NCBI GenBank assembly: GCA_041170435.1
Contig: JBEAYU010000072.1
Location: 6,509-70,508 of the forward strand
From: Bacteroidota bacterium
GTDB taxonomy: Bacteria > Bacteroidota > Ignavibacteria > Kapaibacteriales > Kapaibacteriaceae
Direction of reading: 5' to 3'
DNA: 64,000 nt
Of the stretch, positions 4,819 through 56,420 are shown in pieces (the first letter of the stretch is position 1; each line of letters begins with the position of its first letter). Both the position numbers and the translations under genes were made by a program. The notes under the pieces are model-generated. The model did not search any database, was not told where the DNA came from, and saw only the letters and a program-made list of their open reading frames with translations.

Positions 4819-6441
4819 GTGAATCACACGCGCATATATCGGCGACCGTATGCCCACAGTGGCATCGCCTTCCTAATCGTTACGCTTGCCTGTGCAGCGT
4901 TTGCACCGACTGCCGAAGCGCAGCGCGGCACGGCAACTTCCCGGGCTGATTCAGTTCGGAAAGCAAAGGAGTACTTCATCAATGGTACGACCCTGCAGCT
5001 GCAAGGTGGCAGAGCTGCCGAGGCCATTTTGGAGTTTCAGCAGGCCTTGCGTTTCGACACCACATCGACATGCTTGGCGGCGATCGCTCGCAGCTATGTG
5101 GAGCTTGGCAAGCTCGAGATCGCCCATGAATACGTGACGATGGCACTTGGCCGCAACAAGGAATCGACCGATAGCTGGGAACTCCTTGCCGAGATCGAAG
5201 TACAGCGTGGCCGTTATGACGAGGGGCTTCTTGCCTACGAACAGATCCTCTCTCTGAAGCCGACACGGCGTCACATACAGACACTGGCACGGTTGTACGA
5301 ACCTCGCAATGCTCGCCGTGCGATTGAGCTCTATGAACAACTCATTGAGTCAAAGTCCGACCTCTTTCTACTCGAGCGTCTGGCAGAACTCTATCAGCGA
5401 CTCAATGATGACGTCGGCCTGATCAAGACCTTCCGGCGTGCGGCAGAGATCGATCCTGCAGACGCTCAGATAGCGATCAATCTCGCTTTTGGGTACGTGC
5501 GCCAAGGAATGTTTGATGAGCTCAAAGATCTGCTCGGCCGCTGGACGGACCGTGATCCTGAGCTTAAGGGATCTGCCCGAGTATGGCTTGCAGCACTATC
5601 GGCGCTACACGAGGATACACTGGTCACGGGTATGTACGCGGACCAAACCACGGAGTTCATTGACGCATCGTTTCTGGTCCACTTATCATCATGGCCTGTG
5701 ATGTGCCTGTCTGCGGCCGTGGCCAGCCAGGTGCGGGATACATCTCGCATGATTCGTCATCTTGATGCGGCAGTCGTTGCTCCTGAGTCGATCGTAGAGA
5801 CCTATCTCGAAGCATATCGGCTTTGCATGCTCAACGACATGCATTATCAAGCACTTCGATATGTCAAGAATGGTCAGAGGAAGTATTCCGCCGACCTGAG
5901 ACTTCTCTACGCCGAAGCCTCGATACACTATGAGCAAGGGCAGGATCAACGTGCCATTGGGATCTATCGCGAGATCCTCGAAATGTCGCCCGTTCAAGTT
6001 GACGCGTGGTCTCAGCTTGGCTGGCTGTATGATCGTCGCGGTCACCTCGATAGCTCCGACGCCTGCTATGAGAGGGCCTTGCAGATCGATCCCAGAAACT
6101 CGTTCGTCTGCAACAACTATGCATACTCGCTCTGCCTTCGTGGCAACGATCTCGAGCGAGCCCTGTCACTGTCGAGAACGTCCCTCGAGACGGAACCGGA
6201 AAATCCGGCATACCTCGACACTTATGCGTGGATCCTCTATCACCTCGGTCGACTGGATCAAGCTATCGAAGCCGCAAAGGCTGCGATCATACATGGCGGC
6301 AACGCGACCCACTACGAACACTTCGGCTACATCCTTGAGGCTCGTGGCGAGACATCATTGGCCACAGAGGCCTGGATGAAATCTCTTGAACTGGATCCAA
6401 AGCGGACTCATCTGCAGGCCAAGATCGACCGATATCGCTGA
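4819..6441 (+). CDS. Secreted tetratricopeptide-repeat (TPR) protein
   Basis: GTG start and a signal-peptide-like N-terminus (IAFLIVTLACAAFAPTAEAQ). TPR-like A/Y/L-rich repeats occur throughout (e.g. AWSQLGWLYDRRGHLDSSDACYERALQIDPRN). Confidence 0.75.
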   Translation: MNHTRIYRRPYAHSGIAFLIVTLACAAFAPTAEAQRGTATSRADSVRKAKEYFINGTTLQLQGGRAAEAILEFQQALRFDTTSTCLAAIARSYVELGKLEIAHEYVTMALGRNKESTDSWELLAEIEVQRGRYDEGLLAYEQILSLKPTRRHIQTLARLYEPRNARRAIELYEQLIESKSDLFLLERLAELYQRLNDDVGLIKTFRRAAEIDPADAQIAINLAFGYVRQGMFDELKDLLGRWTDRDPELKGSARVWLAALSALHEDTLVTGMYADQTTEFIDASFLVHLSSWPVMCLSAAVASQVRDTSRMIRHLDAAVVAPESIVETYLEAYRLCMLNDMHYQALRYVKNGQRKYSADLRLLYAEASIHYEQGQDQRAIGIYREILEMSPVQVDAWSQLGWLYDRRGHLDSSDACYERALQIDPRNSFVCNNYAYSLCLRGNDLERALSLSRTSLETEPENPAYLDTYAWILYHLGRLDQAIEAAKAAIIHGGNATHYEHFGYILEARGETSLATEAWMKSLELDPKRTHLQAKIDRYR

Positions 6442-6470
6442 TCATCACCAACAACTGTTCCAACACGTAT

Positions 6471-6668
6471 ATGAAACAGCCACAAAGCACAGACCCACAA
6501 GACTACGAAGTCCTCATCCGTCGTCGTGGTGAATCTGATTACGCATCATACTGCCCGCAACTTGCACATATGATCAAGGGGCAAGCACATGAAGAAGTCG
6601 AAGAGGCAATGAAGCAGCACGTCCTTGCCTATATCGAGTCGCTGAAGAGCGCTACAACGCTTGCCTGA
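6471..6668 (+). CDS. Small HicB-like (UPF0150) protein, no adjacent HicA
   Basis: 65 aa. YEVLIRRRGESDYASYCPQLAHMIKGQAHEEVEEAMKQHV resembles the HicB N-terminal fold pattern. No DNA-binding extension and no HicA-like ORF nearby. Confidence 0.45.
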   Translation: MKQPQSTDPQDYEVLIRRRGESDYASYCPQLAHMIKGQAHEEVEEAMKQHVLAYIESLKSATTLA

Positions 6669-6690
6669 ACGTTCTTGGTTGTGAACGAGC

Positions 6691-7188
6691 ATGACATCGG
6701 ACATCGCATCTGGATACTTGCTCATGCGGCGTTGGGAGACGCGACTTGTCATCGCATGGATCGTGATGATTTCAATCGGGGTGCTTTGTCTCTTCGTATC
6801 GATGGCATTGGCACAGTGGATCTCGCTGCTGACCATTGCGATAGGCGTTCTCCTGTATCTGCTGCTGTCGTCGGCAGTTAGCCCAACCTACAGCGGAACG
6901 ACAGGCGCTGCCAAGATGATCTTTGCGTTGCCGCCCATGATGATCTCGGCACTCTTCTTTGGGGTGCTCGACCGCTGGATGCGCCGTGTGGGCTTTGGAG
7001 TCAAGATGCGCGTTGGCGTCACCTCGCTTGCTCTCGTGGCCGTCGCCACACCGTGGGCATCACCGTCTGCATTAGTGCTATTGCTCATGTGTGGACTGAC
7101 CTCCGCGCTGATGCGAGTACGGTTTTCTTCTGCCATCGCCTGCATTCCATCGGCCCTTGCCCTTCTCATCATCATGGCAGGCAGGTAA
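6691..7188 (+). CDS. Hypothetical multi-pass membrane protein
   Basis: 165 aa with 4-5 hydrophobic helices and no recognisable motif. It ends 3 nt before the CPBP gene. Confidence 0.55.
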   Translation: MTSDIASGYLLMRRWETRLVIAWIVMISIGVLCLFVSMALAQWISLLTIAIGVLLYLLLSSAVSPTYSGTTGAAKMIFALPPMMISALFFGVLDRWMRRVGFGVKMRVGVTSLALVAVATPWASPSALVLLLMCGLTSALMRVRFSSAIACIPSALALLIIMAGR

Positions 7189-7191
7189 CCG

Positions 7192-8145
7192 TTGTCGATG
7201 AACAATGAGTTTACACTGAACGGATCTACACAGTCCTGGACGCGGCACTGGGTGGTGCGTTTGCTCGTGCTCGTGGTCATCGTCGAAACAGCAACTCCGC
7301 TCATGTACGGAATGTTCATGGTTTCGGAACTACTCCACCCATGGGACCCATATCATCTGTCCGGGATAATGTGCGCACTTATTGGTTTGACCGCTCTCGG
7401 TTCGATGATCCTTCTCGAGCACCGTCATATTGGTGGACATTCGACAATGGCATCGGGACTGATTCCGACATCGCGATCGCCTCGTCTGTTCGTCGGAGGT
7501 GTGCTGTGGGCAACGGCGATGATCGCTGCCGTCGGATTGGTGGCAGTGGCTCTTGGAGCTCGACTTGTCGAGAGTCAACTCAGCTTAGGACGTTACAGCC
7601 TTGCTTTCAGCATTGCCTTGTCCACCGGCGAAGAACTTGTCTTTCGTGCGGGCATGCTCTCGATCGTGTCCGAGCGTTTTGGTTCAGTGACCGGCGTGAT
7701 TGTGACAAGCCTGGTGTTTGGTCTCATCCATCTGAGCAATCCTGATGCTGGCCTTCTGAGCACACTCAACACCGTATTGATCGGCCTCGCATTCGGTGTC
7801 ACAACCGTACGATCGGGCTCTATCTGGACGGCCGTCGGGTGCCACGCAACGTGGAATCTGCTCGTGGCACTCTTCTTCGGAACCGTCAGTGGCTTTGTTG
7901 GATCGGAAATGGGCCTGTCATGGTTCACACTGGTGACGGACGAGTCATCGTTGACCACGACGTTGTTTCCCGGCGCTTACGGAATCGAAGCAAGCCCCCT
8001 TGCCACATTGGTCATCATCATTTCTTTTCCCTTTCTTCGTCATATCTCACGGCCCGACCCATACATCATGGCAGCTCGGTATCGCGACGCATTTTCAACC
8101 AGACATTCTCCCGTCACCATCCCCCACTCCATAACACAGTCATGA
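7192..8145 (+). CDS. CPBP (CAAX/Abi) family intramembrane glutamic metalloprotease
   Basis: All three family motifs are present: EELVFRAG, FGLIHLSN and HATWNLL. The protein is polytopic. Start is TTG 7192 or ATG 7198. Confidence 0.8.
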   Translation: MSMNNEFTLNGSTQSWTRHWVVRLLVLVVIVETATPLMYGMFMVSELLHPWDPYHLSGIMCALIGLTALGSMILLEHRHIGGHSTMASGLIPTSRSPRLFVGGVLWATAMIAAVGLVAVALGARLVESQLSLGRYSLAFSIALSTGEELVFRAGMLSIVSERFGSVTGVIVTSLVFGLIHLSNPDAGLLSTLNTVLIGLAFGVTTVRSGSIWTAVGCHATWNLLVALFFGTVSGFVGSEMGLSWFTLVTDESSLTTTLFPGAYGIEASPLATLVIIISFPFLRHISRPDPYIMAARYRDAFSTRHSPVTIPHSITQS

Positions 8146-9290
8146 AGCACCGAATAGTTCTGATTCTGACTCTTCTGGTTGCGAGCACGCACATGCATGC
8201 TCAGTGGGTTGCCATGTCAACCGAGGCTGACTCGCTGGTTCAGCTCGGGACGCGGCATGTGTATAATGTCGAGTTCGAACAAGCCCAAGATGTATTCGAC
8301 GAGGTCATTCGCCGGTATCCGACGCATCCGGCAGGGTACTTTCTCGACGCGATGATCGAATGGTGGAAGATGACGATCGGACAGACCAGCCCAAGCGTCG
8401 AAGCTCGCTTTCTTGCCAAACTCGACAAGGTCATCTCGGTCTGCGACGCCAACCTGGCAGCAAGTCCAAAGGACATCGCATCTCTCTTTTTCAAAGGGGG
8501 CGCATTGGGCTATAGAGGACGGTACAACGCCACGCGCAACAACATGCTCAGTGCCGCAGAAGATGGACGCGTGGCTCTTGGAATCTTGAACGACTGCCAA
8601 AAGATCGCACCCGGGAATCACGACATTCTGCTCGGCACTGGACTCTACAACTACTGGGCAGCTGTCCTGCCGGAAAAATACCCGGCACTGAAGCCCGTGA
8701 TGATCTTTCTTCCAAAGGGCGACAAGATCATTGGTCTTGCACAGCTCAAGGCCGCGGCGCGTCAGGCACGATACGCGGCAGTCGAAGCAAAGGTGGTTCT
8801 CGTTCAGGCATACTTCGATTTCGAAAAGAATGCTCTCGAGGCTATCGAGTTTGCCCGTGACCTCCACAGATCCTACCCCCGCAATCCCGCATTTCACCGT
8901 GCCTATGGTCGATGCCTAGTATCCCTGGGTCCGATCGATTCGGCGGCAGCAGTCTGGCGCGATGTGCTCAACCGTTGCCTCGATAAGTGGCCCGGATATC
9001 ATCGCAATGCCGCTCGAGAGGCCCTCTATTACGTGGGCGTATCACTCATGATACGGGGCGATCTGGACAAGGCACTCACATACTTCTATAAGTGCGACGA
9101 GGCCTGTCGAAAGATCGACGAAGATGCATCAGGCTTCATCATCAAGACCAACCTGAAGGTCGGTCAGATCTACGATCTGCAAGGAAAGCGCGATCTGGCC
9201 ATCAAGCAATACAAGAAGATTCTGTCGTGGTCCGATAACAATGGCTCACACGCCGAGGCACAGCGCTACCTGACCACCCCATATCGATGA
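8142..9290 (+). CDS. Secreted TPR-like protein
   Basis: The internal ATG at 8142 gives the signal peptide MKHRIVLILTLLVASTHMHAQ and overlaps the CPBP stop (ATGA). The longer 7839 start lies inside the CPBP gene in another frame. Confidence 0.65.
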   Translation: MKHRIVLILTLLVASTHMHAQWVAMSTEADSLVQLGTRHVYNVEFEQAQDVFDEVIRRYPTHPAGYFLDAMIEWWKMTIGQTSPSVEARFLAKLDKVISVCDANLAASPKDIASLFFKGGALGYRGRYNATRNNMLSAAEDGRVALGILNDCQKIAPGNHDILLGTGLYNYWAAVLPEKYPALKPVMIFLPKGDKIIGLAQLKAAARQARYAAVEAKVVLVQAYFDFEKNALEAIEFARDLHRSYPRNPAFHRAYGRCLVSLGPIDSAAAVWRDVLNRCLDKWPGYHRNAAREALYYVGVSLMIRGDLDKALTYFYKCDEACRKIDEDASGFIIKTNLKVGQIYDLQGKRDLAIKQYKKILSWSDNNGSHAEAQRYLTTPYR

Positions 9291-17593: not shown

Positions 17594-18367
17594 CTACGGT
17601 TTTTCGTGCATCCCGATGAACGCCAGCATCCTACCGGATCGACTGCCATCGCGCCTGAATGAATGATAGCGCGTGTTGCCGATGGTACACGATCGATCGA
17701 CCGTGATGTTGCCCTCCGACACACCCAGCTCTGTGAGCTGATGAATGATCGCTTGATGATTGTCGAAGTACCACTTCGGCGTCGACTGACGCATGTCTTG
17801 ACTCACGGAATCCGGCACTGGGGTGCAGAATTCGCCGAGGACATCGGCCACGTCGCGGCCCACCTCATAGGCACTGCCGGAAGCGCATGGCGAGAGCCAT
17901 GCACGGATGTTCTTGACCTCGCATCCGACGTCACGGAGAAGACGTTCGATCATCCTACCGCTGATATTGGCGGCAGTTCCACGCCATCCGCTGTGGACGG
18001 CGGCAATCGCGCCACGCACCGGGTCGTGTGTGAGCACACCGCAGCAATCCGCAAGCTTGACGCCCAGCAAGATTCCGCGGGTGGTCGTGTAAAGACCGTC
18101 GGCAGGTCTTCGGCGAAGCTCTGCGATGTCGTCAGCGTGTCTGACATCGACAATATCTGCCCCATGAACCTGGTTGACGGTTGCGATCATGGTTCGGCTC
18201 CATCCTACGTGAGCTGAGAGAAGCTCAAATGAACGCTCGACGCGGACAGCATCTGCCGAGTCAGACACGGAGAACGTTGCGCCCGGCCATGGAAGCACCG
18301 ACGTGTCAACGATGCTCATTCCCGAGATCACGTCCGGATGGTCAACAGCAGGTATCAGTGCGATCAT
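17594..18367 (-). CDS. pgeF: Peptidoglycan editing factor PgeF (YfiH/DUF152, laccase-domain protein)
   Basis: QVHGADIV, ADGLYTT, KLADCCGVL and AVHSGWRGTAANI motifs. Confidence 0.85.
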   Translation of the reverse strand: MIALIPAVDHPDVISGMSIVDTSVLPWPGATFSVSDSADAVRVERSFELLSAHVGWSRTMIATVNQVHGADIVDVRHADDIAELRRRPADGLYTTTRGILLGVKLADCCGVLTHDPVRGAIAAVHSGWRGTAANISGRMIERLLRDVGCEVKNIRAWLSPCASGSAYEVGRDVADVLGEFCTPVPDSVSQDMRQSTPKWYFDNHQAIIHQLTELGVSEGNITVDRSCTIGNTRYHSFRRDGSRSGRMLAFIGMHEKP

Positions 18368-20136
18368 GGTCGTGTGGTATCAGGTGGTGCCGTAAGAGCC
18401 CCCTTCATGCGACGGCCCCAGAGGCCCAAACCTACGACGGCGTCGGGTCGTTTCTCCAGTGTCCAGTTCCGTGCGGCATGATCGATCGGTCCGGCAGGGG
18501 CACCGATGAATGCCACGATGGTACGTCCTTGTCTTTGGCCGGTGACGATGAGTCCGGCCGGGCGTTCAGTGATGTGTGCAGGCAAATCGCGCCGTCCATG
18601 GTCGCGCAGGGTCATGAGCACGATGGTCACCATCAGCACGGCACCCACGCACCTGACCATGAAGCCCGGCCAGCTTCGGGCCGCCAATGGCCAACACAGG
18701 CCAAGCGTGACGATGACACTGAGCCAGATAACACTAACGACATTCATTCCTCGCGTCAGGTCGAGTGCTGCGACGGTTGCCACCACATCGGCAGAACGCA
18801 CCAGCACGGTCAGCCACCAGCCCAGGGCATTCTCCACCACTGGCAGTGGCATCAGAGCCAGCCCAAGTCCCAACACGAGGGATCCACTCATCAGAGGAAC
18901 GACCACGAGGTTTGCCAACAACGCCAGCAGACTGACGGACCCGAACAGGACTGCCGACGGGATCGTGACGCCGACGGTCGCCCCCCAGGTGACGGCCACG
19001 GCATCCACCACGAGGCTCGCTGATGGACGTCTCTTGATGACGAGCATGTGCAGCAAGCGCCGACACGGCGGAACCAGAATGATCATGGCTAGAGTTGCCG
19101 TCACCGACAGTAGAAATCCACCGCTGACAATCGACGTGGGATCGAAACCAATGATCACCAGAATGCTGAGCATCAAGTGATTGATCGGGTTCACGTCCCG
19201 TTCCCAACGCGAACCGATGAGTGCTCCGATTCCCATGATGGCGCTTCTGACGGCAGGGGGCTCGCTGCCGCTCAGGAACGTGTACAGCGCTACGGAGCCG
19301 ATGCCCAGCAGCATGAGCACCATGTTGGGACGAACGCCAATCAGAAGCATCACCAGCCATGTAACGATGGCAACATGCGAACCGCTCACCGAGAAGATAT
19401 GCGCCGTGCCGCTGAGCCGGTATGCACGCACGGATTCGACATCGATGCGCGACCTATCGCCGATCACCAGTGCCACGGCAATGGCCGAGACGTCAGCCGG
19501 AAGACATGATTCAAGCCTCCTGACCATCATCTGCCGCGCCCGGCAGAGCCATATTGTCGCATCCGACGGCGGGCCCGCGTCGAATCCCCTTCCACGCTCG
19601 AGCAGAAATGCCACCCCGATCGATCGCAGATGGTCCGGTTCAGAGAACTCTCCCGGAAGTGTTGGATGGCGCGGACGCCGAAGCAGTCCCGTCACACTCC
19701 GTCGACGTCCAACGTATATCGTGCTGTCAGCCCCCTTTTCGGTGACCAACACCCGAGCATGCGTGCACGGCGCGCATTGGGCATCGACCTCCGCGCTCAA
19801 AACGTAGCGGATCCGGTTGGGTCCACGACGGATCACCTGCTCCACGACACCGTCACAGCGGGCGGGGCTCGAGTACACCCTCGCGCAGGGACCCGAAGAG
19901 CCTCCAGCCGCCACACCGAGTTCATCGGTGATGACGCTTGCCGAGCAGGCTCCCAGAGCCATGGATGTCCAAACGATCGACGTGGCTTGCAGGCGCAGGC
20001 GCAAGGCCAATAGGCCCAAACAGAGCAATACGCCGGCCAGGGACAGTGAAATCGTCCCCTCGAGTCCGAGTGACAAGACAAGCCACGTCGAGCTCACCAT
20101 CATCACAACGGGCATCACCAGTGGAAGGCGCTGCAT
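18364..20136 (-). CDS. comEC: ComEC/Rec2 family competence membrane protein (no recognisable metallo-beta-lactamase domain)
   Basis: Polytopic, with SGTAHIFSVSGSHVAIV, the competence-domain signature. Its stop overlaps the pgeF start (ATGA). No HxHxDH motif occurs in the C-terminal tail. Confidence 0.8.
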   Translation of the reverse strand: MQRLPLVMPVVMMVSSTWLVLSLGLEGTISLSLAGVLLCLGLLALRLRLQATSIVWTSMALGACSASVITDELGVAAGGSSGPCARVYSSPARCDGVVEQVIRRGPNRIRYVLSAEVDAQCAPCTHARVLVTEKGADSTIYVGRRRSVTGLLRRPRHPTLPGEFSEPDHLRSIGVAFLLERGRGFDAGPPSDATIWLCRARQMMVRRLESCLPADVSAIAVALVIGDRSRIDVESVRAYRLSGTAHIFSVSGSHVAIVTWLVMLLIGVRPNMVLMLLGIGSVALYTFLSGSEPPAVRSAIMGIGALIGSRWERDVNPINHLMLSILVIIGFDPTSIVSGGFLLSVTATLAMIILVPPCRRLLHMLVIKRRPSASLVVDAVAVTWGATVGVTIPSAVLFGSVSLLALLANLVVVPLMSGSLVLGLGLALMPLPVVENALGWWLTVLVRSADVVATVAALDLTRGMNVVSVIWLSVIVTLGLCWPLAARSWPGFMVRCVGAVLMVTIVLMTLRDHGRRDLPAHITERPAGLIVTGQRQGRTIVAFIGAPAGPIDHAARNWTLEKRPDAVVGLGLWGRRMKGALTAPPDTTRP

Positions 20137-20332
20137 AGGCGATTCTCTGTGCCATGAAGCCCTCGAAACGTGACGCGTCGGTGTTGATAACTCGCCTGCC
20201 TCGGGCCGATGACCGCCCGTAATTTGCGCCCTCTGTAATGCGTCGCGTGGTCGAACGGCAAGCCCCCTGTCACGTTCCGGATGCCATGCCGCTCATAGAC
20301 CGTAACGACGCATTTCTTCCACGACAATATCA

Positions 20333-21418
20333 ATGGACACCATCATGAGTGCAGAAGCAAAGGCATCCAAGGATGCAAAGGAAACGTCAACGGCGGCCGC
20401 GAAGCCAGCCGATGCCAAGGTAAAGGCCGCACAGCTGGCCATGGAGCAGATCGAAAAGCAATTCGGTAAGGGCTCCATCATGCGCTTGAGTGACACCTCA
20501 TCGGTCGAGATCGACGCGATCTCCACGGGCTGCTTGTCACTTGATGCGGCGATCGGCATTGGTGGTGTTCCGCGCGGCCGGATCGTCGAGATCTACGGTC
20601 CGGAATCCTCTGGCAAAACCACGGTCTGTCTTCAAGTGATCGCCGAGGCACAAAAGGCAGGGGGCTTGGCAGCATTCGTCGATACCGAGCATGCACTTGA
20701 TGTCAAGTACGCACAGCGCCTCGGCGTGGACCTCAACAATCTGCTTCTGTCGCAACCGGAGTTTGGTGAGCAGGCCCTCGAGATCGTCGAAACACTCGTT
20801 CGCTCGGGTGCCATCGATGTGGTCGTGGTGGACTCCGTGGCCGCATTGACGCCGCGTGTGGAGATCGAGGGCGACATGGGCGATGCGCAGATGGGCTCGC
20901 AGGCCCGCCTCATGAGTCAGGCCATGCGCAAGCTCAATGCTGCCATCGGACGGTCGAACACGACAGTGATCTTTACCAACCAGTTGCGCTCAAAGATCGG
21001 CGTCATCTACGGTAATCCCGAGACGACCACCGGCGGTAACGCCCTCAAGTACTACGCGTCACTGCGCATCGATGTGCGCCGTAAGGACGTCATCAAGGAT
21101 GGACAGGATATCGTTGGCAACCGTGTACGGGCCAAGGTGGTCAAGAACAAGGTCGCCCCGCCGTTTCGTGAGGCAGAGTTCGACATCATGTACAACGAGG
21201 GCATCTCGCGTCTTGGCGACATGATCGATGTGGCCGTCGAAACGGGAATCATCACCAAGTCAGGTTCGTGGTTCTCCTTCAACGAAGAACGCGTTCAAGG
21301 CCGTGACGGTATGCGTAAGCTCCTTACAGAGAATGCCCCACTGTATGCTGCACTCGACGCTGCCGTGCGTCAGGCACTGCACCTGCCAAGCACGATCGCG
21401 TCGAACGGCAAGAAGTGA
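20333..21418 (+). CDS. recA: Recombinase RecA
   Basis: [24 protein letters not shown] (Walker A), [10 protein letters not shown]-like VVVDSVAAL and FINQLR-like [10 protein letters not shown]. It has a Lys/Ala-rich N-terminal extension of about 25 aa. Confidence 0.97.
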
Positions 21419-21421
21419 CGC

Positions 21422-23602
21422 ATGGGCGTGATCACGTCCATCCGCCGTAATGTGAAGAACGCCGGACGCTGTTCGGTCTATGTCGACGATGTGTTCTTTG
21501 CCGCTTGCCCGATCGACGTCGCTCTGTCGTTAGGCTTGCGCAAGGGACTGGCGATGTCCGAAGACCTGGAACGCCGTCTTCGGAGTGAGGATCGACGCAT
21601 GGTACTTCGGCAAAAAGCCTATCGTTTTGCGACCTACAAGCCGCGAAGCGAACGGGACATCGCGCGGTTTCTATCCAAGCACGAGGCCACTGACGAAGAA
21701 TCGGTGGACGTGATGCTGTGGCTCAAGGATTTTCGTTTGATCGATGATGCGGATTACGCCCGACGCTTCATTGATGCATCGAAGCAGCGCAAGCCCCTTT
21801 CCCCATCGATGTTGCGAAGAGCACTTCTGGGCAAGGGGCTGAGTGAAGCCATTGTCGACTCAGCAATGGCAGCCGAAACCTTGCCGGATGATGCATTGCA
21901 TGCAGCACGACATGTGGCTCGCAAGAAACTGCGCATGCTTGCGTCCGATGATGCCCGAACGACCGAGGACAAGCTTGTGCGATTCTTACAGTACCGTGGC
22001 TACAGCTGGGAGGTCATCAAGTCCGTCATCGCCGAATGGAAAGGCGGAGCTCTCGGCATTGCCGCTTCGTTTCTCTTGATGCTCTCGGTGATGTCCGCGC
22101 AGGTCGATACTTCATGCAGTAAGTCACGCATGGGAGACGCCATCAATCAGTTTCAGCCTACGACGTTGCCGGTGAAAGGTGCGGAGGGCGAACTGTATCT
22201 CGACAGGAAGAACCATCCAGAGAACGCCGGTGGAACACAGGACCCTGATGACGTCTGGGTCTCCCGCCGGCAGGGCGCCGGCTGGTCAACGGCTCGTCCG
22301 GCTGGGCTTGTGGCATACGACTCACTACAGCGACGATTGCTACGAGCGAAGGTGATGTTCGGCATGAGTTACGACGGTCTCACCGCACTCGTTGCCGGCC
22401 CCTTCGGATCGCATGCTGACGTGATGTCGTTGGGGATCTTCATGCGGGTTCGACGCGACGGTCCTTTTACCAGGGCCGCAGTGGTGATACCCGACCTTGG
22501 CAAGAACTTCTTTGCCTCGATGTCGGAGGACAGGCAGGCCATCATCGTGGCCCTTGAGCGTCCCGAGGGCATGGGTGACTTAGACTTGTACGTCATTTCA
22601 GCGAACCTCTGCACGATGGAATTCGGTCAACCGGTTCCACTGGGACCCGTCATCAATACACCTGGTTTTGAAGGTTCGCCATGGATTGCGTGTGATAACA
22701 CGACGCTCTATTTCGCTTCATCCGGACGTGAAGATCGTCGGGGTAAGGCCGACCTCTACATGACACGCCGGCTTGATGCCACGTGGACGTCGTGGAGTGC
22801 ACCCATCAATCTTGGTTCATGCATCAACTCGTCCGGCGATGAGACGACCTTCTCTCTTCCGTGCGGTGAGTCCCGTGCCTTCATCACGTCTTGGGATCCC
22901 GACTCAGACCGATCGGGCATCTACACGACTGACCTGCCGATGCATCTCCGTCCTCAGCCGACGAACGAGCTCACGGTACGTTTCCACGATCTCGACGGCA
23001 ACCCTGTTAATGTCCCGAATGTCATGCTGGGCATAGGCCCGGCCAATGCTTTGCCACGTGCAACGGAGTGTCCCGAACGGACTCAGTTCATCTCCACCGA
23101 CGCCGTCAGCGGAACCGCACGGACGGTCGTGGCCCGAGATTCGGCGTACTGGATTTTCCCGGCCCGATCGAGCGTGGAGTCATGGTTCATCGCGCCTTCA
23201 GGCTGCTCAAGCACAGCGGCGCCGCTCAGTGTTGATCTGCTGGCTGTTCCGACGAAGAAGCCGGTACTGAGCGTGTTCTTTGAAAAGGGGCGGTCGGATC
23301 TTTCGGAAACAGCACTGGCGTTGATCGCAGAACTTTCTGTCAAGATCACCAAGGGTTCGGTGCCAGTGATTCGCGTGGTGGGCTTCGCCGATGCCTCGGG
23401 CTCGGCATCACTAAATGAGGAGCTCTCGCAGGCGCGGGCTGAGGCCGTTGCTCGAAGGTGCCTCGACCTCGTCGCAGCCGCGGACGGTCGGCGCATCGAC
23501 GTCACCACGACCGGTATGGGTGTCGAGCGGACCTCCAATGCATCGGTGCCATCGGACTCCCCCACCAGCCGACGGGTGGACATTTACATCGGACCGAGGT
23601 AA
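21422..23602 (+). CDS. recX: RecX regulatory domain fused in frame to a TM/signal-anchor segment, PD40-type repeats and an OmpA-like peptidoglycan-binding domain
   Basis: Residues 1 to about 205 are RecX-like (three helical repeats: YRFATYKPRSERDIARFL..., RRFIDASKQRKPLSPSMLRRALLGKGL, LVRFLQYRGYSWEVI). Next comes GALGIAASFLLMLSVMSAQ. Then PD40-like INTPGFEGSPW...LYFASSGR...ADLYMT...W..APINLGSCINSSGDE. The C-terminus is OmpA-like: VVGFADASGSASLNEELSQARAEAV...SRRVDIYI. Confidence 0.8.
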   Translation: MGVITSIRRNVKNAGRCSVYVDDVFFAACPIDVALSLGLRKGLAMSEDLERRLRSEDRRMVLRQKAYRFATYKPRSERDIARFLSKHEATDEESVDVMLWLKDFRLIDDADYARRFIDASKQRKPLSPSMLRRALLGKGLSEAIVDSAMAAETLPDDALHAARHVARKKLRMLASDDARTTEDKLVRFLQYRGYSWEVIKSVIAEWKGGALGIAASFLLMLSVMSAQVDTSCSKSRMGDAINQFQPTTLPVKGAEGELYLDRKNHPENAGGTQDPDDVWVSRRQGAGWSTARPAGLVAYDSLQRRLLRAKVMFGMSYDGLTALVAGPFGSHADVMSLGIFMRVRRDGPFTRAAVVIPDLGKNFFASMSEDRQAIIVALERPEGMGDLDLYVISANLCTMEFGQPVPLGPVINTPGFEGSPWIACDNTTLYFASSGREDRRGKADLYMTRRLDATWTSWSAPINLGSCINSSGDETTFSLPCGESRAFITSWDPDSDRSGIYTTDLPMHLRPQPTNELTVRFHDLDGNPVNVPNVMLGIGPANALPRATECPERTQFISTDAVSGTARTVVARDSAYWIFPARSSVESWFIAPSGCSSTAAPLSVDLLAVPTKKPVLSVFFEKGRSDLSETALALIAELSVKITKGSVPVIRVVGFADASGSASLNEELSQARAEAVARRCLDLVAAADGRRIDVTTTGMGVERTSNASVPSDSPTSRRVDIYIGPR

Positions 23603-25548
23603 TGTGAGCGCCCGTCACCGCGGAGTTCGATGCTCGTGGTACGACGTTTACTCCCATCGACATCCTCCGTGAACTGCATCACCCACCGAGCGCCCGCGTG
23701 CACGTACAGGGCCAGCTCGTTCTCAGCGATCCATTCGGTGTTCTCATCGTGCAGAGGCGACCTCCACAGGACTTCACCTTCGGCAACCAGGCATGCGCGT
23801 TCGATTCCGTCATCCCCCACGGCTTGGATCACAAGCTCCTCCGGACCCAACGGACGTCGCTCAAGCCGAACTCTGAGCCGTTGCCACGAGTTCGAGGTTT
23901 CCATGGCCACATCGCGCACGAGTGCATCGCTTCTGTGCATTGACGTTGTGCCAAAGGTGATCGGCTGACGCAACATCGAGCCCCCTTCTTGCTCAGTCAG
24001 GGGGCGATCCAACTCAGCCGGGACGTCACATTGACATCGTTCGAACACTGCTCTCAAGCGAGCTCGAAATGTCGCATCAAACTCCTCGCGGTGCGGTGCC
24101 TGATGTCGTTCGTCATACCACCAGAACCAGTCAGATGCCTCGAGTACCTCGAGTTGCTCGGCTACTGATTCTTCGTCAAGACCGCTCTCGAGCAGGGCCT
24201 GCCGTGCTCGACGCAGCAGACTCCAGGCAAGGTTCTTGGTCGGTGTTCCGATCCACACACCAAAGTCGGCATTGATCCATGAACCGGCGCGCAGGCGTGC
24301 CAAACGTCGGGCGTGCCCTGAGGCAACGACCTCGGAACAGGTCACGCATGTGAAGCGATCATCATCTACCAGGTGCTGCATCAATGCGCGAAGGAACGGT
24401 TCGCCATTTTGGTGATAGAACTCCCAGCAATTTTCACCGTCGAGCATGATCGGGATCACGGCACTGTCGAGAGCTGCAGCACCTTGTTCGTGAATGATGA
24501 GCTGACGTCGCTCTTCGAGGCGGCGTATGAAGTCAGCAGCTGCACGTGCCGCATCCCACGATGCATATTCAAAACCGATGGCATCACTCAGACCATGGTC
24601 GCGAAACAAGATCGTGATCGGACCCGAGCTGGTCTCGACCTCGTATGGAAAATACACGTCACTTCGAACGAACAATCCGTCCGCCGACGCGTGCAGGACC
24701 CCTTCATCTGTGGCCGTCCAGCAAATTCCGTTCCGAGCGAAGATCTCCAGGGCGTCCAGCGAGAGCGACCCCTCGGCAGGCCACATGCCCAGCGGCTTTG
24801 ATCCGCTGCGTTTCTTCCAATCGTTGAGTGACCGCCGAACGTGACGGTCAGCATCATAGGGGGCTCGATAGGGCGGGTCGGGCAAGACCGATGCAGGCAT
24901 GCATTCACGAGCAACATCCGTATCGATGATCAACGGAAGGATCGGGTGATGGTATGGAGTGACACTGATCTCAAAGTGACCTGTCGTATGAAGCTCAACC
25001 ATCCGGCGTGCCGCTTGGGCCACGATGCGGCGGATCTCATTCATGAGCTCGTACTTCTGCGCCTCCGCATACTGCTCGCCTTGGTCCACAAAACGCGCGA
25101 TCAAGGGATTTGTCCTGCGCTGCAAGGGCCCACACCAGGCCAAGTGAAACAGAACGATCGCGTCCCGCCAGTCCTGTTCCGAAAGCACCGGTCGATCATG
25201 GGTACGCAGCTGCGCCATGATGGCCTGCAATCGCGGCAACTGCTCAATCATCGGGTCGCGCAACGTCAGCATCCAGCGCGTCAGCTCACCATGCTGATGC
25301 TCTGTCAGCGACGCAGTATTGAATTCGGCCAGTTCCTCAAGCGGATCACGCACGCCCCCTGCATAGGCGTCGAGCTGCTCCAGCATCGACGGCACGAGGT
25401 TGATGGTATGACGCACCGGATACTCGGCCAAAATGCCGGGAAGATCGAGATAGTCTTTGATGGCATGCAGCCGCACCCACGGAAGAACAAAACGACCATC
25501 AAGCCGATACTCGGGCTGATGCTGATGCCAAAGGAAGCAGATTCTCAT
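23584..25548 (-). CDS. Glycoside hydrolase family 57 protein (alpha-glucan-active)
   Basis: MRICFLWHQHQPEYR...LPWVRLHAIKDYLD is the GH57 N-terminal signature. Start set at ATG 25548. The 3' end overlaps the recX-fusion 3' end by 19 nt (convergent). Confidence 0.8.
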   Translation of the reverse strand: MRICFLWHQHQPEYRLDGRFVLPWVRLHAIKDYLDLPGILAEYPVRHTINLVPSMLEQLDAYAGGVRDPLEELAEFNTASLTEHQHGELTRWMLTLRDPMIEQLPRLQAIMAQLRTHDRPVLSEQDWRDAIVLFHLAWCGPLQRRTNPLIARFVDQGEQYAEAQKYELMNEIRRIVAQAARRMVELHTTGHFEISVTPYHHPILPLIIDTDVARECMPASVLPDPPYRAPYDADRHVRRSLNDWKKRSGSKPLGMWPAEGSLSLDALEIFARNGICWTATDEGVLHASADGLFVRSDVYFPYEVETSSGPITILFRDHGLSDAIGFEYASWDAARAAADFIRRLEERRQLIIHEQGAAALDSAVIPIMLDGENCWEFYHQNGEPFLRALMQHLVDDDRFTCVTCSEVVASGHARRLARLRAGSWINADFGVWIGTPTKNLAWSLLRRARQALLESGLDEESVAEQLEVLEASDWFWWYDERHQAPHREEFDATFRARLRAVFERCQCDVPAELDRPLTEQEGGSMLRQPITFGTTSMHRSDALVRDVAMETSNSWQRLRVRLERRPLGPEELVIQAVGDDGIERACLVAEGEVLWRSPLHDENTEWIAENELALYVHAGARWVMQFTEDVDGSKRRTTSIELRGDGRSHYLGPM

Positions 25549-25639
25549 GTGGGAATCTACATCCCAGCCGCCCACGAAACACTACGTGTTTCCTCCGCCG
25601 TGGCGCACAACAACGGGCGCAAAACAATTGGCAAGATGA

Positions 25640-25667: not shown

Positions 25668-25670
25668 TTG

Positions 25671-26034
25671 TGGAGATGCCGGGAGTCGAACCCGGGTCCG
25701 AAGTGAACGAATCGAAGCCTACCACGTGCGTCTTCGATCTACGGTGTCTCGCTGTTCCGGTAACCGATCGACAGGTCCGAAGCAGCCAGCATCAGTGTTG
25801 TCTCACGTTAGGTCCTGGTGCACGACTTCACGCCAGTCTGTTTAAGGGCAACACCGAGTTAGAGGGGAACAGACACCCGTCTAGTCGATGGCATAGCGGC
25901 CTAAGCTTAGGCGGCCATGCGATAACCGAAGTTATCGCCAGTTGTTATTCGCCGGTTGTATTAACGAGCTCCACCAGCGTAGCTCGGCACGCATCTTCGT
26001 AAACGCTTCACCCCGTCGAGACCGTTACATCCCC
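25671..26034 (-). ncRNA. ssrA: tmRNA (SsrA)
   Basis: The minus-strand 5' end is GGGGATGTAACGGTCTCGACGGGG and the 3' end is GGACCCGGGTTCGACTCCCGGCATCTCCA. The acceptor stem GGGGATG/CATCTCC has the G3-U pair, and a T-arm-like GGTTCGACTCC is present. An internal candidate tag ORF ends GCC GCC TAA. The + strand ORF 25670-26002 is therefore spurious. Confidence 0.93.
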
Positions 26035-32492: not shown

Positions 32493-32513
32493 CTGACCGC
32501 CGTGCGGTGCGCG

Positions 32514-34712
32514 ATGCCGTACCTATCTTCGCTCATGAACGTCAGCACACCGATTGGTACACTTGTGATGGCACTGCTGTGCCTCTTCGTCGCATCTCCG
32601 GCGCAAAAGCGAGCCTACGTTCCGGCATACATTCGGGACACGTCCACTGTCGAAGGGCGACAGTTCAGCTGGGACAAGACCGCGCAAAGCGCGAACTTCT
32701 TCATGATATGGGGCGACTCTGTCGGCACCGATCCGTCGAAGTTCACCGCCGAGGATCTGCGATTCGATCCTAAGCAGGTGCTCGATACCATGGAGTACAT
32801 CTATGCCCGGTGCAATGAGATGGGCATGATCAACCGCTCGCCCGACTCCAAGGCCAACCTCTACAAGTACGTCATCGTGATGTACAACACCTACCGCGGC
32901 AACGGCCCCACCGGATGGGCCAATGGCTGGGCAGTGGATGATTCGATCGGCGCTTTCTGGGTGCATCCGTCGGCCACGCGCGACGGAGGTGTGATCGCCC
33001 ACGAATTCACCCATTCTCTGCAGGCGATGTTTCACATCGACAACCAGAACTCGGCGCGTGGCTCCAAGGCCATCTATGAGAACGATGGCCTTTTCTATGA
33101 GACGCATGCCAACTTCGTCCGCAATGTGATCTATCCGCAAGCCGTGACGTCGGACATCGATGCGCACCATTACCTCATGCTCGAGCCCGACTGGAAATTC
33201 AACTACGAAGGGTACCACTTCCTTCTCTACGTGCATTCGACACTTGGCCTGGATATGGTGAGCCGGCTTTGGACCGAGTGGCGACCTTTGGAGTATCCGC
33301 TGCAGACGCTGCGCCGCCTCAATGGAATGACGCAAGCCGACTTCAACGACTACATGTTCGACTATGCACGCAGGGCCGCTTCGTGGAACTATCCAGAAAA
33401 TGACTGGGGCCGGTACCTGCGGGAGTCGAGACGTCTGCGAATGAATGCCGATTGGGGGCGCATCTGGGCGCAGCGCACCTTTGATGTTCTCCGCGCGATC
33501 GATACGTCGGCTCGACGGTTCTACTCCGCCCCCTACAATGCACCTCAAGACTACGGCTACAACATCGTGCCACTGTATCCGGATGATCCCACCAAGCCAG
33601 TCGTGGTGGACTTCGTTGGGCATACAGAGGTAAATGACCATGCCGGATGGCGGTATGGCTTCGTGACCGAAAAGGCTGACGGCACGCCCGGACGCGTTGG
33701 ACAGATGTATCGCGATGATCGTCGGCGCATTGAGCTGACGCTGAACCCCGACGAACAGGGGCTCTTTCTGGTCGTGCTCGGTGCACCGACTGACAGCATG
33801 CACGCCGATCCTGAGGTACACAACACGTGGAATGGAAACCCCAAACGATTCCATTATCCGTACGAGATCAGGCTCATAAACGCCATGCCCGAGGGTCATC
33901 AGCGGCCCGACCTCGTGCGTCCTCAGCTTCGCACAGCACCGGGTAAGCGGCACATCAATGGAGGGGGCTGGGTGGACGATCGTGCGTTGGTGGAAGCGAG
34001 CGTTTATGTTGGCCCAAGGGCCATGGTCCTTGGCACATCGAAGATCACCGGCACGGCGCGTATCGACGGCTGCGCGTTTGTTGAAAACGCCACCATCAGT
34101 GGGGCCGCACAAGTTCTGGATAATGCCGTTGTCAGAGCAGGAACGATGCGAGATTCGGCGATCGTGCGCGATCAGTGCATTGCCGAGAACAACACACTTG
34201 GTGGCAGGGCTCTGCTCGGTGGCTGTTCGATCGTGCAGAACTACAAGCTAGCCGGTGATATTAAGATCGACGGCGACCTGGTGGTGTACAACGACCAGGG
34301 AGAGTGTAACACCGGCGAGTACCACGTGCTGACGCAGTACTATCGAAATGAGCTCCTGCCATGCGGCCAACGCGATGCACTGCATCCGGAGAACATCTCC
34401 GTCAACCGCCCCATTCGATTCGATCTCGTCAGCGTTGAGCACGATCCAATGGTGGCCAGCGAGATTTCGCTACACCCCCATCCGGTGACCGGCGATGCAG
34501 TCGAGATTCGCATCCCGGCAGGGGGCGATGGCAGTTCAAGAGTTGAGTTTGTGGACCTTTTCGGACGTAAAGTTCTTGCGTACGATGCCTTCGGTCCAGC
34601 TGCAGCAGCTCTTCAGATTGACGTCACGAACCTGCCCCCAGGATGGTATACCATGCGCCTGATGTCACGCTCAGGCACTTGTTATGCACAACGATCTATG
34701 TTGAGGCAATAG
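32514..34712 (+). CDS. Secreted zincin-like protein (HEXXH) with a beta-helix repeat region and a T9SS C-terminal sorting domain
   Basis: Signal peptide (IGTLVMALLCLFVASPAQ) and HEFTHSLQ. A hexapeptide-like run follows: GTSKITGTARIDGCAFVENATISGAAQVLDNAVVRAGTMRDSAIV. The C-terminal roughly 80 aa (VEFVDLFGRKVL...LPPGWYTMRLMS) have the T9SS type A CTD pattern. Confidence 0.7.
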   Translation: MPYLSSLMNVSTPIGTLVMALLCLFVASPAQKRAYVPAYIRDTSTVEGRQFSWDKTAQSANFFMIWGDSVGTDPSKFTAEDLRFDPKQVLDTMEYIYARCNEMGMINRSPDSKANLYKYVIVMYNTYRGNGPTGWANGWAVDDSIGAFWVHPSATRDGGVIAHEFTHSLQAMFHIDNQNSARGSKAIYENDGLFYETHANFVRNVIYPQAVTSDIDAHHYLMLEPDWKFNYEGYHFLLYVHSTLGLDMVSRLWTEWRPLEYPLQTLRRLNGMTQADFNDYMFDYARRAASWNYPENDWGRYLRESRRLRMNADWGRIWAQRTFDVLRAIDTSARRFYSAPYNAPQDYGYNIVPLYPDDPTKPVVVDFVGHTEVNDHAGWRYGFVTEKADGTPGRVGQMYRDDRRRIELTLNPDEQGLFLVVLGAPTDSMHADPEVHNTWNGNPKRFHYPYEIRLINAMPEGHQRPDLVRPQLRTAPGKRHINGGGWVDDRALVEASVYVGPRAMVLGTSKITGTARIDGCAFVENATISGAAQVLDNAVVRAGTMRDSAIVRDQCIAENNTLGGRALLGGCSIVQNYKLAGDIKIDGDLVVYNDQGECNTGEYHVLTQYYRNELLPCGQRDALHPENISVNRPIRFDLVSVEHDPMVASEISLHPHPVTGDAVEIRIPAGGDGSSRVEFVDLFGRKVLAYDAFGPAAAALQIDVTNLPPGWYTMRLMSRSGTCYAQRSMLRQ

Positions 34713-55457: not shown

Positions 55458-56420
55458 ATGCGACGGATCATCATTGGAGTGCTCGGGCTCTTTCTGCCCT
55501 TCCAATTCCTTACGGCACAACCTCGCACGGGCCCGGTAGCTGGCCCGGAGTGCGGCGACGCGCCGCTGCGACGTGCACTGGGTCTGCTCTTTGACTCTAC
55601 CAGTCAGGGTATCGTTGTCGTTGAGGTTTTCGAGAACATGCCGGCCTACGCGGCTGGTATATGCCGAGGAGACATTCTCCTTGCGATCGATCATCAACCG
55701 ATTCTGTCATTAATGCAGGCCGTCAGGCAGACACATGACATCAAGGCCGAGTTTGTGATGCTTGATGTTCAGCGGCGAGACATGCACATCTGCCGGAGAA
55801 TAGGTGTTCACGACGGCGCTCCTATGCAGGCGGCCTGCATTCGCTCCGGTGGTGCCATGGCCATTGCCATCAGGCGTGTCGACCACACGCTGCCAGAGCA
55901 CCTGGCAAAGGTGCTGAAGCATTCGAGTTCGCATTCTGTTGATACGATGATCATGGATCTGCGCAGGTGGCGATCTAATCAGAGCGAGGCAGATGTGCGT
56001 CCGATCGAACTGCTGCTTGCCTTGCTCAGACGCGATGTCGACAAAGCGGTCCATGTCGTGATCTTGCCTCCGGTCGATCAGGCTGATCCTTCGTGGCGAA
56101 TGGCACAACGTCTTGCCGAGCAATGTGCAGCCGAGCTTTGGGATGAACCGGTGGATGCACAAACATCCCAAGTCGCTGCACCTACATTCGGCTTCGTGTA
56201 CGGCAACACCGGACAACGGCGGGCACCAGCGATGGTGCCCTCGGTTCAACAGGCACCTGTACACTGGAACATGGCTGATTTCCGGACACGTTTTCCGGTG
56301 CCATCTGACCGGGCCATGTCCCACCCAATGATGAGTCAGCACTCAGGTATGGCTCCGATAGCATGGGGCCTGGCTGGTGATGCGTGGAATGCGATCGAGC
56401 ACGTGCGCCGGCGGATCTGA
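55458..56420 (+). CDS. Secreted protein with a PDZ-like segment
   Basis: AGGAGG lies 6 nt upstream. There is a signal peptide, and GIVVVEVFENMPAYAAGICRGDILLAIDHQPI is PDZ-like. Confidence 0.5.
   Translation: MRRIIIGVLGLFLPFQFLTAQPRTGPVAGPECGDAPLRRALGLLFDSTSQGIVVVEVFENMPAYAAGICRGDILLAIDHQPILSLMQAVRQTHDIKAEFVMLDVQRRDMHICRRIGVHDGAPMQAACIRSGGAMAIAIRRVDHTLPEHLAKVLKHSSSHSVDTMIMDLRRWRSNQSEADVRPIELLLALLRRDVDKAVHVVILPPVDQADPSWRMAQRLAEQCAAELWDEPVDAQTSQVAAPTFGFVYGNTGQRRAPAMVPSVQQAPVHWNMADFRTRFPVPSDRAMSHPMMSQHSGMAPIAWGLAGDAWNAIEHVRRRI

Follow-up and report, generated by a model that had tools for sequence, protein, structure and literature searches.

An in-frame fusion of RecX to a predicted periplasmic peptidoglycan-binding protein through an internal signal-peptide-like segment in uncultured Kapaibacteria/Ignavibacteria

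What becomes of a polypeptide that begins as a cytoplasmic regulator of RecA and ends as a protein of the periplasm? The question is raised by a single open reading frame (ORF) directly behind recA on contig JBEAYU010000072.1 of a Bacteroidota bacterium (Kapaibacteriaceae; assembly GCA_041170435.1), in the stretch of 64,000 nucleotides (nt) that we analyzed as a whole and call the window. An initial annotation had described an uninterrupted frame of 726 codons that starts 3 nt after the recA stop and ends in ...SRRVDIYIGPR; the ORF call, the sequence TGA-CGC-ATG at the recA border, and the translated C terminus all agree with this description. RecX is viewed as a small, soluble protein that modulates RecA, and here a whole clade makes it in one chain with a wall-binding protein that is predicted to be exported. 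We consider it probable, at roughly 60%, that the fused gene, recX::PD40/OmpA, encodes a two-in-one precursor in which an internal signal peptide would export the C-terminal half and be cut after Ala226. The coordinates of all features are collected in Table 1; related proteins and loci are cited by their P and L numbers.

The first ~205 residues had been assigned to RecX, and both domain and structure searches support that assignment. Pfam detected the helical repeats of the family above the gathering score, with RecX_HTH1 at residues 63–97, RecX_HTH2 at residues 108–149, and RecX_HTH3 at residues 159–203 (28.1, 29.0, and 42.1 bits, respectively, versus a cut-off of 26). The NCBIfam models of long RecX proteins align to residues 1–206, with equivalog scores of at most 97.8 bits that stay under the cut-offs of 146–351 bits (for example, 97.8 versus 240 for NF010733 and 92.4 versus 194 for NF001058). 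A Foldseek search of the PDB matched the RecX part to 3d5l with a target-normalized TM-score of 0.76 over 202 columns (E = 8e-12), and also to 3c1d and 3e3v, the RecX matches ranging from 0.76 to 0.82 on the same scale. In the AlphaFold2 model, the RecX_N domain is formed by three β-strands (residues 3–9, 16–21, and 24–30) and a helix, and nine helices lie between residues 47 and 207. RecX_N is the most conserved part of the fused protein (mean pairwise identity of 64%), and the repeats follow with 49%. This conservation would indirectly fit a RecX that binds RecA and blocks the extension of its filaments. The size is not that of a typical RecX, which is a free protein of 150–270 amino acids; the 726-amino acid ORF has no stop after the RecX part.

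Behind a hydrophobic segment, the initial annotation had placed a PD40 and OmpA-like protein, and Pfam, the AlphaFold2 model, and Foldseek point to the same architecture. The model of the full protein, built with 25 homologs, reached a mean predicted local distance difference test (pLDDT) score of 86.8. Its propeller region is all-β at a pLDDT of ~90, contains a Pfam PD40 match above the gathering score at residues 407–447, and shows a mean pairwise identity of 48–51%. For the linker domain that follows, PF13620 (CarboxypepD_reg) is listed for the homologs P0028, P0052, P0053, and P0065. The C-terminal domain gave a Pfam OmpA match at residues 619–707 (36.9 bits versus a cut-off of 27.2; mean pairwise identity of 38%), and Foldseek against the PDB returned the OmpA-like domain 3td3, Pal (4b5c), and the TolB propeller (7mx5). 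Three residues of this domain, Asp-657, Asn-665, and Arg-672, are invariant among the 25 homologs, and their D-8-N-7-R spacing is the same as that of Asp-576, Asn-584, and Arg-591 of PorE, which contact the diaminopimelate of peptidoglycan (PMC7192894). Cys-232 and Cys-467 are likewise invariant, and Cys-397 and Cys-550 are found in at least 90% of the homologs. The four cysteines would suit an oxidizing compartment, and together with the Asp/Asn/Arg triad, they fit a mature protein that resides in the periplasm and is predicted to bind peptidoglycan.

Is such a chimera a real gene? A search that covered 5.8 billion clustered proteins recovered 69 clusters of 690–737 amino acids that span 97–100% of the query at 35–98% identity, and all of them carry the RecX, PD40, and OmpA Pfam domains. 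P0001 is a 98%-identical protein of 726 amino acids from an independent ENA assembly. When one genome per bacterial species was scanned, the uninterrupted ORF was found behind recA in ~35 species-representative metagenome-assembled genomes (MAGs) of the Kapaibacterium/Ignavibacteria type; overall, the fused homologs (~70 clusters) span 28–98% identity. An exhaustive HMMER search with the RecX part returned 6240 representatives. The ~22 closest (E ≤ 1e-30) are mostly long fusions, and the remainder of the best 150 of these 6240 are nearly all 200–240 amino acids long. The fused architecture thus appears confined to this clade and a few distant long forms, such as P0168 and P0235. To judge from the alignments, all domains of the fused protein are under purifying selection, and the fusion is genuine and anciently fixed in an uncultured clade of Kapaibacteria/Ignavibacteria. 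Our literature search, which covered a searchable paper library, found no paper describing a RecX-OmpA fusion, or such a protein in Ignavibacteria/Kapabacteria, and the automatic names that databases give to the family (for example, "RecX family transcriptional regulator," "OmpA-OmpF porin," and "hypothetical protein") are misleading.

Some database records of the family call for caution. MAGs labeled Patescibacteria, Chitinophaga pinensis, Hyphomicrobiales, Bradyrhizobiaceae, or Didemnitutus carry a recA-recX locus of the Kapaibacteria/Ignavibacteria type (L008, L010, L017, L023, L032, L039, L045, L047, L048, L051, and others), and these bins are probably mislabeled or contaminated. P0122 (293 amino acids, on a 461-kb contig) matches the N terminus of P0022 and then stops; it is an allele of the fused gene that has suffered a truncation or a frameshift. 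P0070 (583 amino acids) has a Rieske-like C terminus after the propeller and possibly stems from a chimeric contig.

How could two genes on opposite sides of the membrane become one? We classified 85 fetched loci with hidden Markov models for the three modules and inspected the junctions. The ancestral-type arrangement is seen in L001, L045, L047, and L057, where recA, recX (210–226 amino acids, with its own stop), and the PD40/OmpA gene are separate; in L001, recA and a standalone recX of 212 amino acids are followed by the gene that encodes P0072. The distance from recX to the PD40/OmpA gene in unfused loci extends from an 11-nt overlap to a 191-nt gap. Gaps of 60–191 nt separate the genes in L001, L045, and L047, and the recX stop overlaps the PD40/OmpA start in L056, L057, L059, and L060. 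L042 and L043 also hold three separate genes, with a 9-nt gap and a new ATG after the recX stop. In a neighbor-joining (NJ) tree of RecA and RecX, L001, L045, L047, and L057 fall outside one large clade that holds the fused forms, and L042 and L043 are among the basal lineages of that clade. From this series of separate, overlapping, 9-nt-gap, and fused loci and from their placement in the tree, the fusion is therefore best explained by loss of the recX stop between two genes that were already tightly coupled. The PD40/OmpA gene appears to have traveled with recA-recX since before that event.

These comparisons also bear on two points of the initial annotation. It had considered that a stop codon between two ancestral genes was lost, which the separate recA, recX, and PD40/OmpA genes of the outgroups support as a real evolutionary event. 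It had also named a stop at the end of recX in close relatives as an observation that would count against a fused gene; the fused ORF runs uninterrupted through ~35 relatives, and a recX stop is present in the outgroups and in L042 and L043.

The history of the locus does not end with the fusion. Some lineages inside the fused clade appear to have re-split the genes, dropped the periplasmic half, or lost the propeller alone. In a Kapaibacterium MAG (L046), a standalone recX (5995–6624; 53% identical) behind recA has no hydrophobic tail, and a GH57 gene (6642–8627, minus strand) follows directly after it in an otherwise syntenic locus, which points to a deletion that removed the periplasmic half entirely. 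P0126–P0139 are standalone RecX proteins as well, 50–58% identical to the RecX part of the window, which end after the last RecX helix and have no tail. A shorter fusion family of 430–437 amino acids (L048, 5977–7302; L051, 5839–7305; P0147, P0149–P0152, and P0155) retains RecX, a signal-peptide-like A↓Q junction (the arrow marks the predicted cut), and the CRD-like and OmpA-like end; the propeller is lost, and the Asp/Asn/Arg peptidoglycan-binding motif of the OmpA-like domain is degenerate. In P0148 (590 amino acids), the propeller is partly deleted. Because the clade contains re-split, tail-less, and propeller-less forms, RecX function would appear to be independent of the link, and the exported half can apparently change or be lost.

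We then turn to the segment that joins the two halves. The initial annotation had recognized a hydrophobic core with an AxA-type signal-peptide end, and a segment of this kind is indeed present at that place, ending in M-S-A↓Q. Residues 207–226 read K-GGALGIAASFLLMLSVMSA, then Q227 and C232. Compared with the pattern of a type I signal peptide, the segment provides K207, then ALGIAASFLLMLSVM, then S-A↓Q, in agreement with the pattern, and the hydrophobic stretch from G208 to A226, together with Q227, occupies nt 22043–22102. It does not stand at the N terminus of the precursor; it begins at residue 207, behind a folded domain of 205 residues. In the AlphaFold2 model, a helix at residues 210–223 has low pLDDT, and residues 210–230 are the sole weak region.

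The closest proteins without RecX, P0072–P0074 (430–511 amino acids, 31–36% identity), carry conventional signal peptides at their N termini, and a few residues further on, they show the same invariant cysteine motif as the fused proteins, C-x-K-x-R-L...N-x-[FY]-Q-P. Signal peptides of the unfused proteins end in MRFPLATLCLSLVTLHTSLLC↓QPNGC, ...GGASAA↓EQPSVRC, ...FLFG↓QSVEQTC, and ...MVEA↓QQSFYC, and the hydrophobic segment of the fused protein lies at the same position. The cysteine, Cys-232 of the window protein, is invariant in both homolog alignments, P0072–P0074 included. A lipoprotein (signal peptidase II) reading of Cys-232 was rejected, as there is no lipobox, the cysteine stands 4–5 residues past A↓Q, and the unfused orthologs have the same spacing.

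To compare the junctions, we extracted 82 distinct fused ones from the homologs and scored an [AGSC]-Q pair within 13 residues of the invariant cysteine, with 1000 shuffles as the control. The pair is kept in 75 of the 82 junctions, whereas shuffling leaves it in 17.9 ± 3.6 junctions on average and in 30 at most, and in 71 of these 75, the distance from position +1 to the cysteine is 4–5 residues. Position +1 is Gln; at position −1, Ala is the most frequent residue (54 junctions), ahead of Ser (15) and Gly (4), and position −3 is Ala in 21, Val in 17, Leu in 13, Ser in 8, Met in 6, and Gly in 6 (n = 75 for both). Positions −4 to −6 are small or polar and rich in Ser, Ala, Thr, and Pro. The junction as a whole has a pairwise identity of 17%, versus 49–64% for RecX and 48% for the propeller. 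The uncharged run, including the c-region, has a median of 17 residues, reaches 20 or more in only 8 of the 75, and measures only 10–12 in several; approximately two Lys/Arg residues are found in the 12 residues that precede the hydrophobic segment (82 junctions), and the hydrophobic (h-) regions of the fused genes are not longer than those of the unfused orthologs. Because small residues at −1 and −3 and Gln at +1 survive in a saturated stretch, and a permanent anchor would need neither, the signal peptidase I site seems to be kept under selection in an otherwise drifted junction and is predicted to be still in use.

A glutamine at +1 of signal peptidase I substrates is known as the Q-rule of Bacteroidetes, with a reported Q-value of 77% for Ignavibacterium album (PMC5837995). 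Four other secreted ORFs of the window have N-terminal signal peptides that end in A↓Q (Table 1), and the source organism appears to follow the rule.

Together, these data lead us to the following model of one precursor and two proteins. The fusion would have removed the recX stop and a short or overlapping intergenic junction, so that the type I signal peptide which had begun the downstream protein came to lie inside a 726-amino acid precursor. RecX (residues 1–205) would be translated first and would stay and fold in the cytoplasm. The hydrophobic segment at residues 207–226 would then engage the Sec/signal recognition particle machinery in an N-in orientation, the C-terminal 500 residues would be exported, and signal peptidase I would cut after Ala226. 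The mature periplasmic protein would start at Gln227, the N terminus expected from the Q-rule, and bind peptidoglycan via Asp-657, Asn-665, and Arg-672. RecX would keep a signal-peptide remnant of ~20 residues, which would bind it, at least transiently, to the cytoplasmic side of the inner membrane; release would come when the remnant leaves the membrane or is removed by a site-2 protease or a signal-peptide peptidase.

Several observations weigh against this model. The [AGSC]-Q motif is missing from 7 of the 82 junctions, the window itself has Met at −3, a residue found there in just 6 of 75, and the junction sequences are related by descent, so that the counts are not independent events. The Kyte-Doolittle mean of the segment, ~1.8 over 19 residues by hand calculation, fits a transmembrane helix too; we set this measure aside as a discriminator, as it cannot separate a signal peptide from a signal anchor. 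The NJ tree that gives the polarity of the series has no support values. Finally, the fusion persists over deep divergence, even where the periplasmic part is decaying, as in the 430–437-amino acid forms, and the link itself could be useful.

The protein might also never be cut. A bitopic protein with a permanent N-in anchor would hold RecX at the inner membrane and the propeller/OmpA part on the peptidoglycan, and RecA regulation would be confined to a membrane-proximal zone, for example near the ComEC DNA-uptake channel. Such tethering, to membrane and wall, had been put forward in the initial annotation; we regard it as a possible but unlikely outcome and not as the best reading. The uninterrupted ORF and the retention of the fusion across 28–98% identity would suit it, and the segment has the hydrophobicity that a membrane helix requires (helix 210–223 of the model) and is preceded by approximately two Lys/Arg residues in 12, which fits an N-in topology. 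In the shortened forms, RecX is still joined through the hydrophobic segment to a periplasmic domain that has become degenerate, indicating that the link was not lost at once, and comEC adjoins recA in the window and in L004–L006. Against these points, the uncharged run has a median of 17 residues and in some cases measures only 10–12, too short for a stable bilayer span, and the comEC neighborhood is absent in L001. The signal peptidase site is retained far above expectation in an otherwise unconstrained segment, and close relatives with a tail-less standalone RecX or re-split genes suggest that a tether is dispensable for RecX. We therefore favor cleavage over tethering, because the segment lies where the unfused orthologs have their signal peptides, its site appears to be selected, and lineages live without the link.

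Cleavage could itself serve as a control. It is conceivable, though improbable, that RecX is a membrane-bound pro-form whose release depends on envelope processing. Signal peptidase would cut first, possibly gated by the state of the peptidoglycan-binding domain, and a site-2 protease or a signal-peptide peptidase would then clip the remnant. In a weaker version, RecX would stay tail-anchored and act only at the membrane, for example on DNA that enters via ComEC.

Equally doubtful, and perhaps more so, is a regulated release of the kind known from RsiV. In Bacillus subtilis, signal peptidase performs the site-1 cleavage of RsiV, and site-2 proteases clear signal-peptide remnants. By analogy, the precursor would remain intact until a periplasmic change, such as peptidoglycan binding or envelope damage, exposes the site, a site-2 protease would free RecX, and control of RecA would be coupled to the state of the envelope. 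The architecture of the window protein would fit such a scheme, with a cytoplasmic regulator, one hydrophobic segment, an extracytoplasmic ligand-binding domain, and a conserved site of the signal peptidase type. Unfused orthologs, however, use this site as part of an ordinary constitutive signal peptide, the sequence gives no hint that the site is masked, and close relatives have RecX without the module.

Translation might instead start a second time, at an in-frame codon 5' of the hydrophobic segment; in that case, the long ORF would be no more than a read-through form of RecX. A candidate start exists in relatives: the conserved RecX motif W-x-V-I-K/R lies shortly ahead of the h-region, and its Val, at a distance of 10–11 codons, has a GTG codon in 20 of 32 fused loci (L004, L009–L020, L023, L028, L030–L032, L035, L038, and L040), compared with a 33% share of GTG among all Val codons, and a start there would yield a plausible pre-protein, M-I-K-x-L-R.... 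In the window, however, this Val is GTC, and no ATG, GTG, or TTG occurs until the inside of the h-region. The initial annotation had reported that in-frame start codons near the junction lie only within the hydrophobic core, which is where we find them (ttg atg ... gtg atg, codons 219–224), and its deduction that a separately initiated, functional secreted protein is impossible in the window holds, as no start codon precedes the h-region. Moreover, 9 of the 32 loci offer no candidate codon at all, the loci with GTG are for the most part closely related and may reflect phylogenetic inertia, and ribosomes translating RecX would run through anyway, as there is no stop codon. Internal initiation is rejected for the window, and the GTG could serve as a start in some relatives; as a general explanation, we judge it very improbable.

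The weakest explanation is an artefact, in that the contig was mis-assembled, a stop or frameshift was erased by faulty sequencing, or the gene is a pseudogene in decay. It draws on the fact that the window is a single sequence and is extremely improbable in view of P0001, purifying selection on all domains, and the confident full-length model, the mis-assembly considered in the initial annotation, and a sequencing error as well, being excluded by the recurrence of the same ORF in ~35 species-level genomes from many studies and ~70 clusters.

The preferred model of a cleaved precursor leaves the surroundings of the gene to be considered. All complete related loci have recA immediately 5' of the fused gene, and the spacing between the recA stop and the recX start is 2–3 nt in 23 of 42 related loci (within L004–L053), which suggests that translation of recA and the fused ORF is coupled. 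In E. coli, a terminator between recA and recX keeps RecX scarce, which differs from the tight spacing seen here. In the window, recA and the fused ORF share the same reading frame, and read-through of the single recA stop would join RecA to the fused precursor. LexA-type boxes were not found in the 260 nt upstream of recA in the 44 loci searched (window 20137–20332 included) with the patterns GAAC-N4-GTTC, CTGT-N8-ACAG, and GTTC-N7-GTTC and two other LexA-type patterns. SOS (DNA-damage) control of the operon is unsupported in that no common LexA pattern emerged, a search that a phylum-specific box would escape.

The four-gene order of a comEC-like gene, recA, the fused ORF, and a GH57 gene is also present in the Ignavibacteria MAG loci L004–L006. 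The comEC neighborhood is not present in the unfused outgroup locus L001, and a functional link to competence via comEC was rejected on this ground.

Table 1. Features of the recA-recX::PD40/OmpA locus and of other signal-peptide ORFs in the window
Feature	Position (nt)	Strand	Residues	Basis or remark
recA	20333–21418	+	361	ORF; Pfam RecA 448.6 bits, RecA_C 58.9 bits
Spacer CGC (3 nt), recA TGA to fused-ORF ATG	21419–21421	+		Sequence reads TGA-CGC-ATG
Fused ORF recX::PD40/OmpA	21422–23602	+	1–726	726 codons and stop, ATG start
RecX N-terminal domain	21422–21601	+	1–60	PF27462 RecX_N listed for homologs; NCBIfam long-RecX models from residue 1
RecX core, three tandem three-helix repeats	21602–22036	+	61–205	Pfam RecX_HTH1/2/3
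Internal signal-peptide-like segment, WKGGALGIAASFLLMLSVMSA	22037–22099	+	206–226	K207 in the basic n-region; ~15-residue h-region; small/polar c-region with M-S-A at its end
Predicted signal peptidase I site, Ala226↓Gln227 (gcg cag)	22097–22102	+	226–227	[AGSC]-Q retention across junctions
Invariant Cys232	22115–22117	+	232	First residue of mature motif C-x-K-x-R-L...N-x-F-Q-P-T-T-x-P-V
Mature N-terminal motif and PD40 (TolB-like) β-propeller	22100–22951	+	227–510	Pfam PD40, Foldseek TolB 7mx5
CRD-like β-sandwich linker domain	22952–23257	+	511–612	Model strands 514–610; identity 25%
OmpA_C-like peptidoglycan-binding domain	23258–23599	+	613–726	Pfam OmpA, Foldseek 3td3 and 4b5c
comEC-like competence channel gene	18364–20136	−		Divergent from recA
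GH57 glycoside hydrolase gene	23584–25575	−		Convergent; 19-nt overlap with the 3' end of the fused ORF
Transfer-messenger RNA (tmRNA) gene, full-length	25668–26034	−		Rfam RF00023, 148.7 bits; just downstream of the GH57 gene
Other A↓Q signal-peptide ORF	4819–6441	+		...PTAEA↓QRG
Other A↓Q signal-peptide ORF	32502–34712	+		...ASPA↓QKR
Other A↓Q signal-peptide ORF	55458–56420	+		...FLTA↓QPR
Other A↓Q signal-peptide ORF	58326–59105	−		...IKAA↓QGV

What the fusion means depends on how the junction is handled. If cleavage is constitutive, which is the most probable outcome, the biology would be modest, two ordinary proteins made from one gene. If RecX is instead a pro-form, the restraint that it puts on RecA filaments in this clade would depend on secretion or cell-wall status, and recombination would be under a switch that works by regulated proteolysis. 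The clade offers natural experiments on whether Sec and signal peptidase can use a signal peptide behind a folded domain of 205 residues as a polyprotein splitter, and on whether membrane sequestration or strict 1:1 co-production influences RecA regulation. With its adjacent, overlapping, fused, re-split, and partly or fully deleted forms, the locus holds a full evolutionary series and is a clear example for studying how genes for products on either side of the cytoplasmic membrane fuse.

The individual parts, RecX, a PorE-like peptidoglycan binder, and an internal signal peptide, are known, and it is their combination that is new. The RecX part has the same RecX_N domain and three three-helix repeats as the long Firmicutes-type form of the RecA-filament inhibitor RecX (OraA; PRK14135; PDB entries 3d5l, 3c1d, and 3e3v), and its gene lies directly downstream of recA, as does that of canonical RecX. 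Canonical RecX is a free cytoplasmic protein of 150–270 amino acids, whereas here no stop separates it from a predicted signal peptide and the 500 residues beyond.

The periplasmic half shows the same order of propeller, CRD-like domain, and OmpA_C domain as the Bacteroidota PD40/OmpA proteins of the PorE (PG1058)/CHU_0125 type (PMC7192894, PMC12773672), and it shares the D-8-N-7-R peptidoglycan-binding triad with PorE (PMC7192894). PorE additionally has a TPR domain and a lipid anchor, whereas the window protein has neither a TPR hit nor a lipobox, and its conserved cysteine at +5/+6 of the predicted site is not that of a lipoprotein signal. PorE is linked to type IX secretion genes and the window gene to recA-recX, with comEC, recA, and GH57 as neighbors. 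Membership in the PorE family (NF052230) was rejected at a score of 52.6 versus a cut-off of 600, as was membership in the CHU_0125 family of OmpA-like outer membrane integrity proteins (NF053607), which gave only a local match at residues 316–490 with 64.6 versus 620; the similarity to PorE is likewise only local.

A second comparison is offered by TolB and Pal. The PD40 propeller of the former (7mx5) and the Pal-like OmpA_C domain of the latter (4b5c) are both found here in one periplasmic chain. The window protein differs from that system in that the modules are fused, the TolB N-terminal domain and the lipid anchor are missing, and there is no tol gene context.

The arrangement of the junction resembles that of the FbcH cytochrome b-c1 precursor of Bradyrhizobium japonicum, in which one gene yields two proteins that are split at an internal signal peptide. 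In both cases, the upstream moiety is on the cytoplasmic or membrane side, and an internal signal sequence exports the downstream moiety and is cut by signal peptidase (in our protein, both by prediction). The two halves of FbcH belong to one complex, and its upstream half is an integral membrane protein, whereas the window protein has in this place a soluble regulator of DNA repair for which no relation to the exported half is known.

Finally, the anti-sigma factors RsiV and RseA, which are subject to regulated intramembrane proteolysis, have the topology that is predicted for the fused protein, in which one hydrophobic segment connects a regulator domain in the cytoplasm to an extracytoplasmic domain, and in RsiV, it is signal peptidase that makes the first cut. 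They differ from the window protein in that there is no sigma-factor partner here and in that cleavage is probably constitutive, as in the unfused orthologs.

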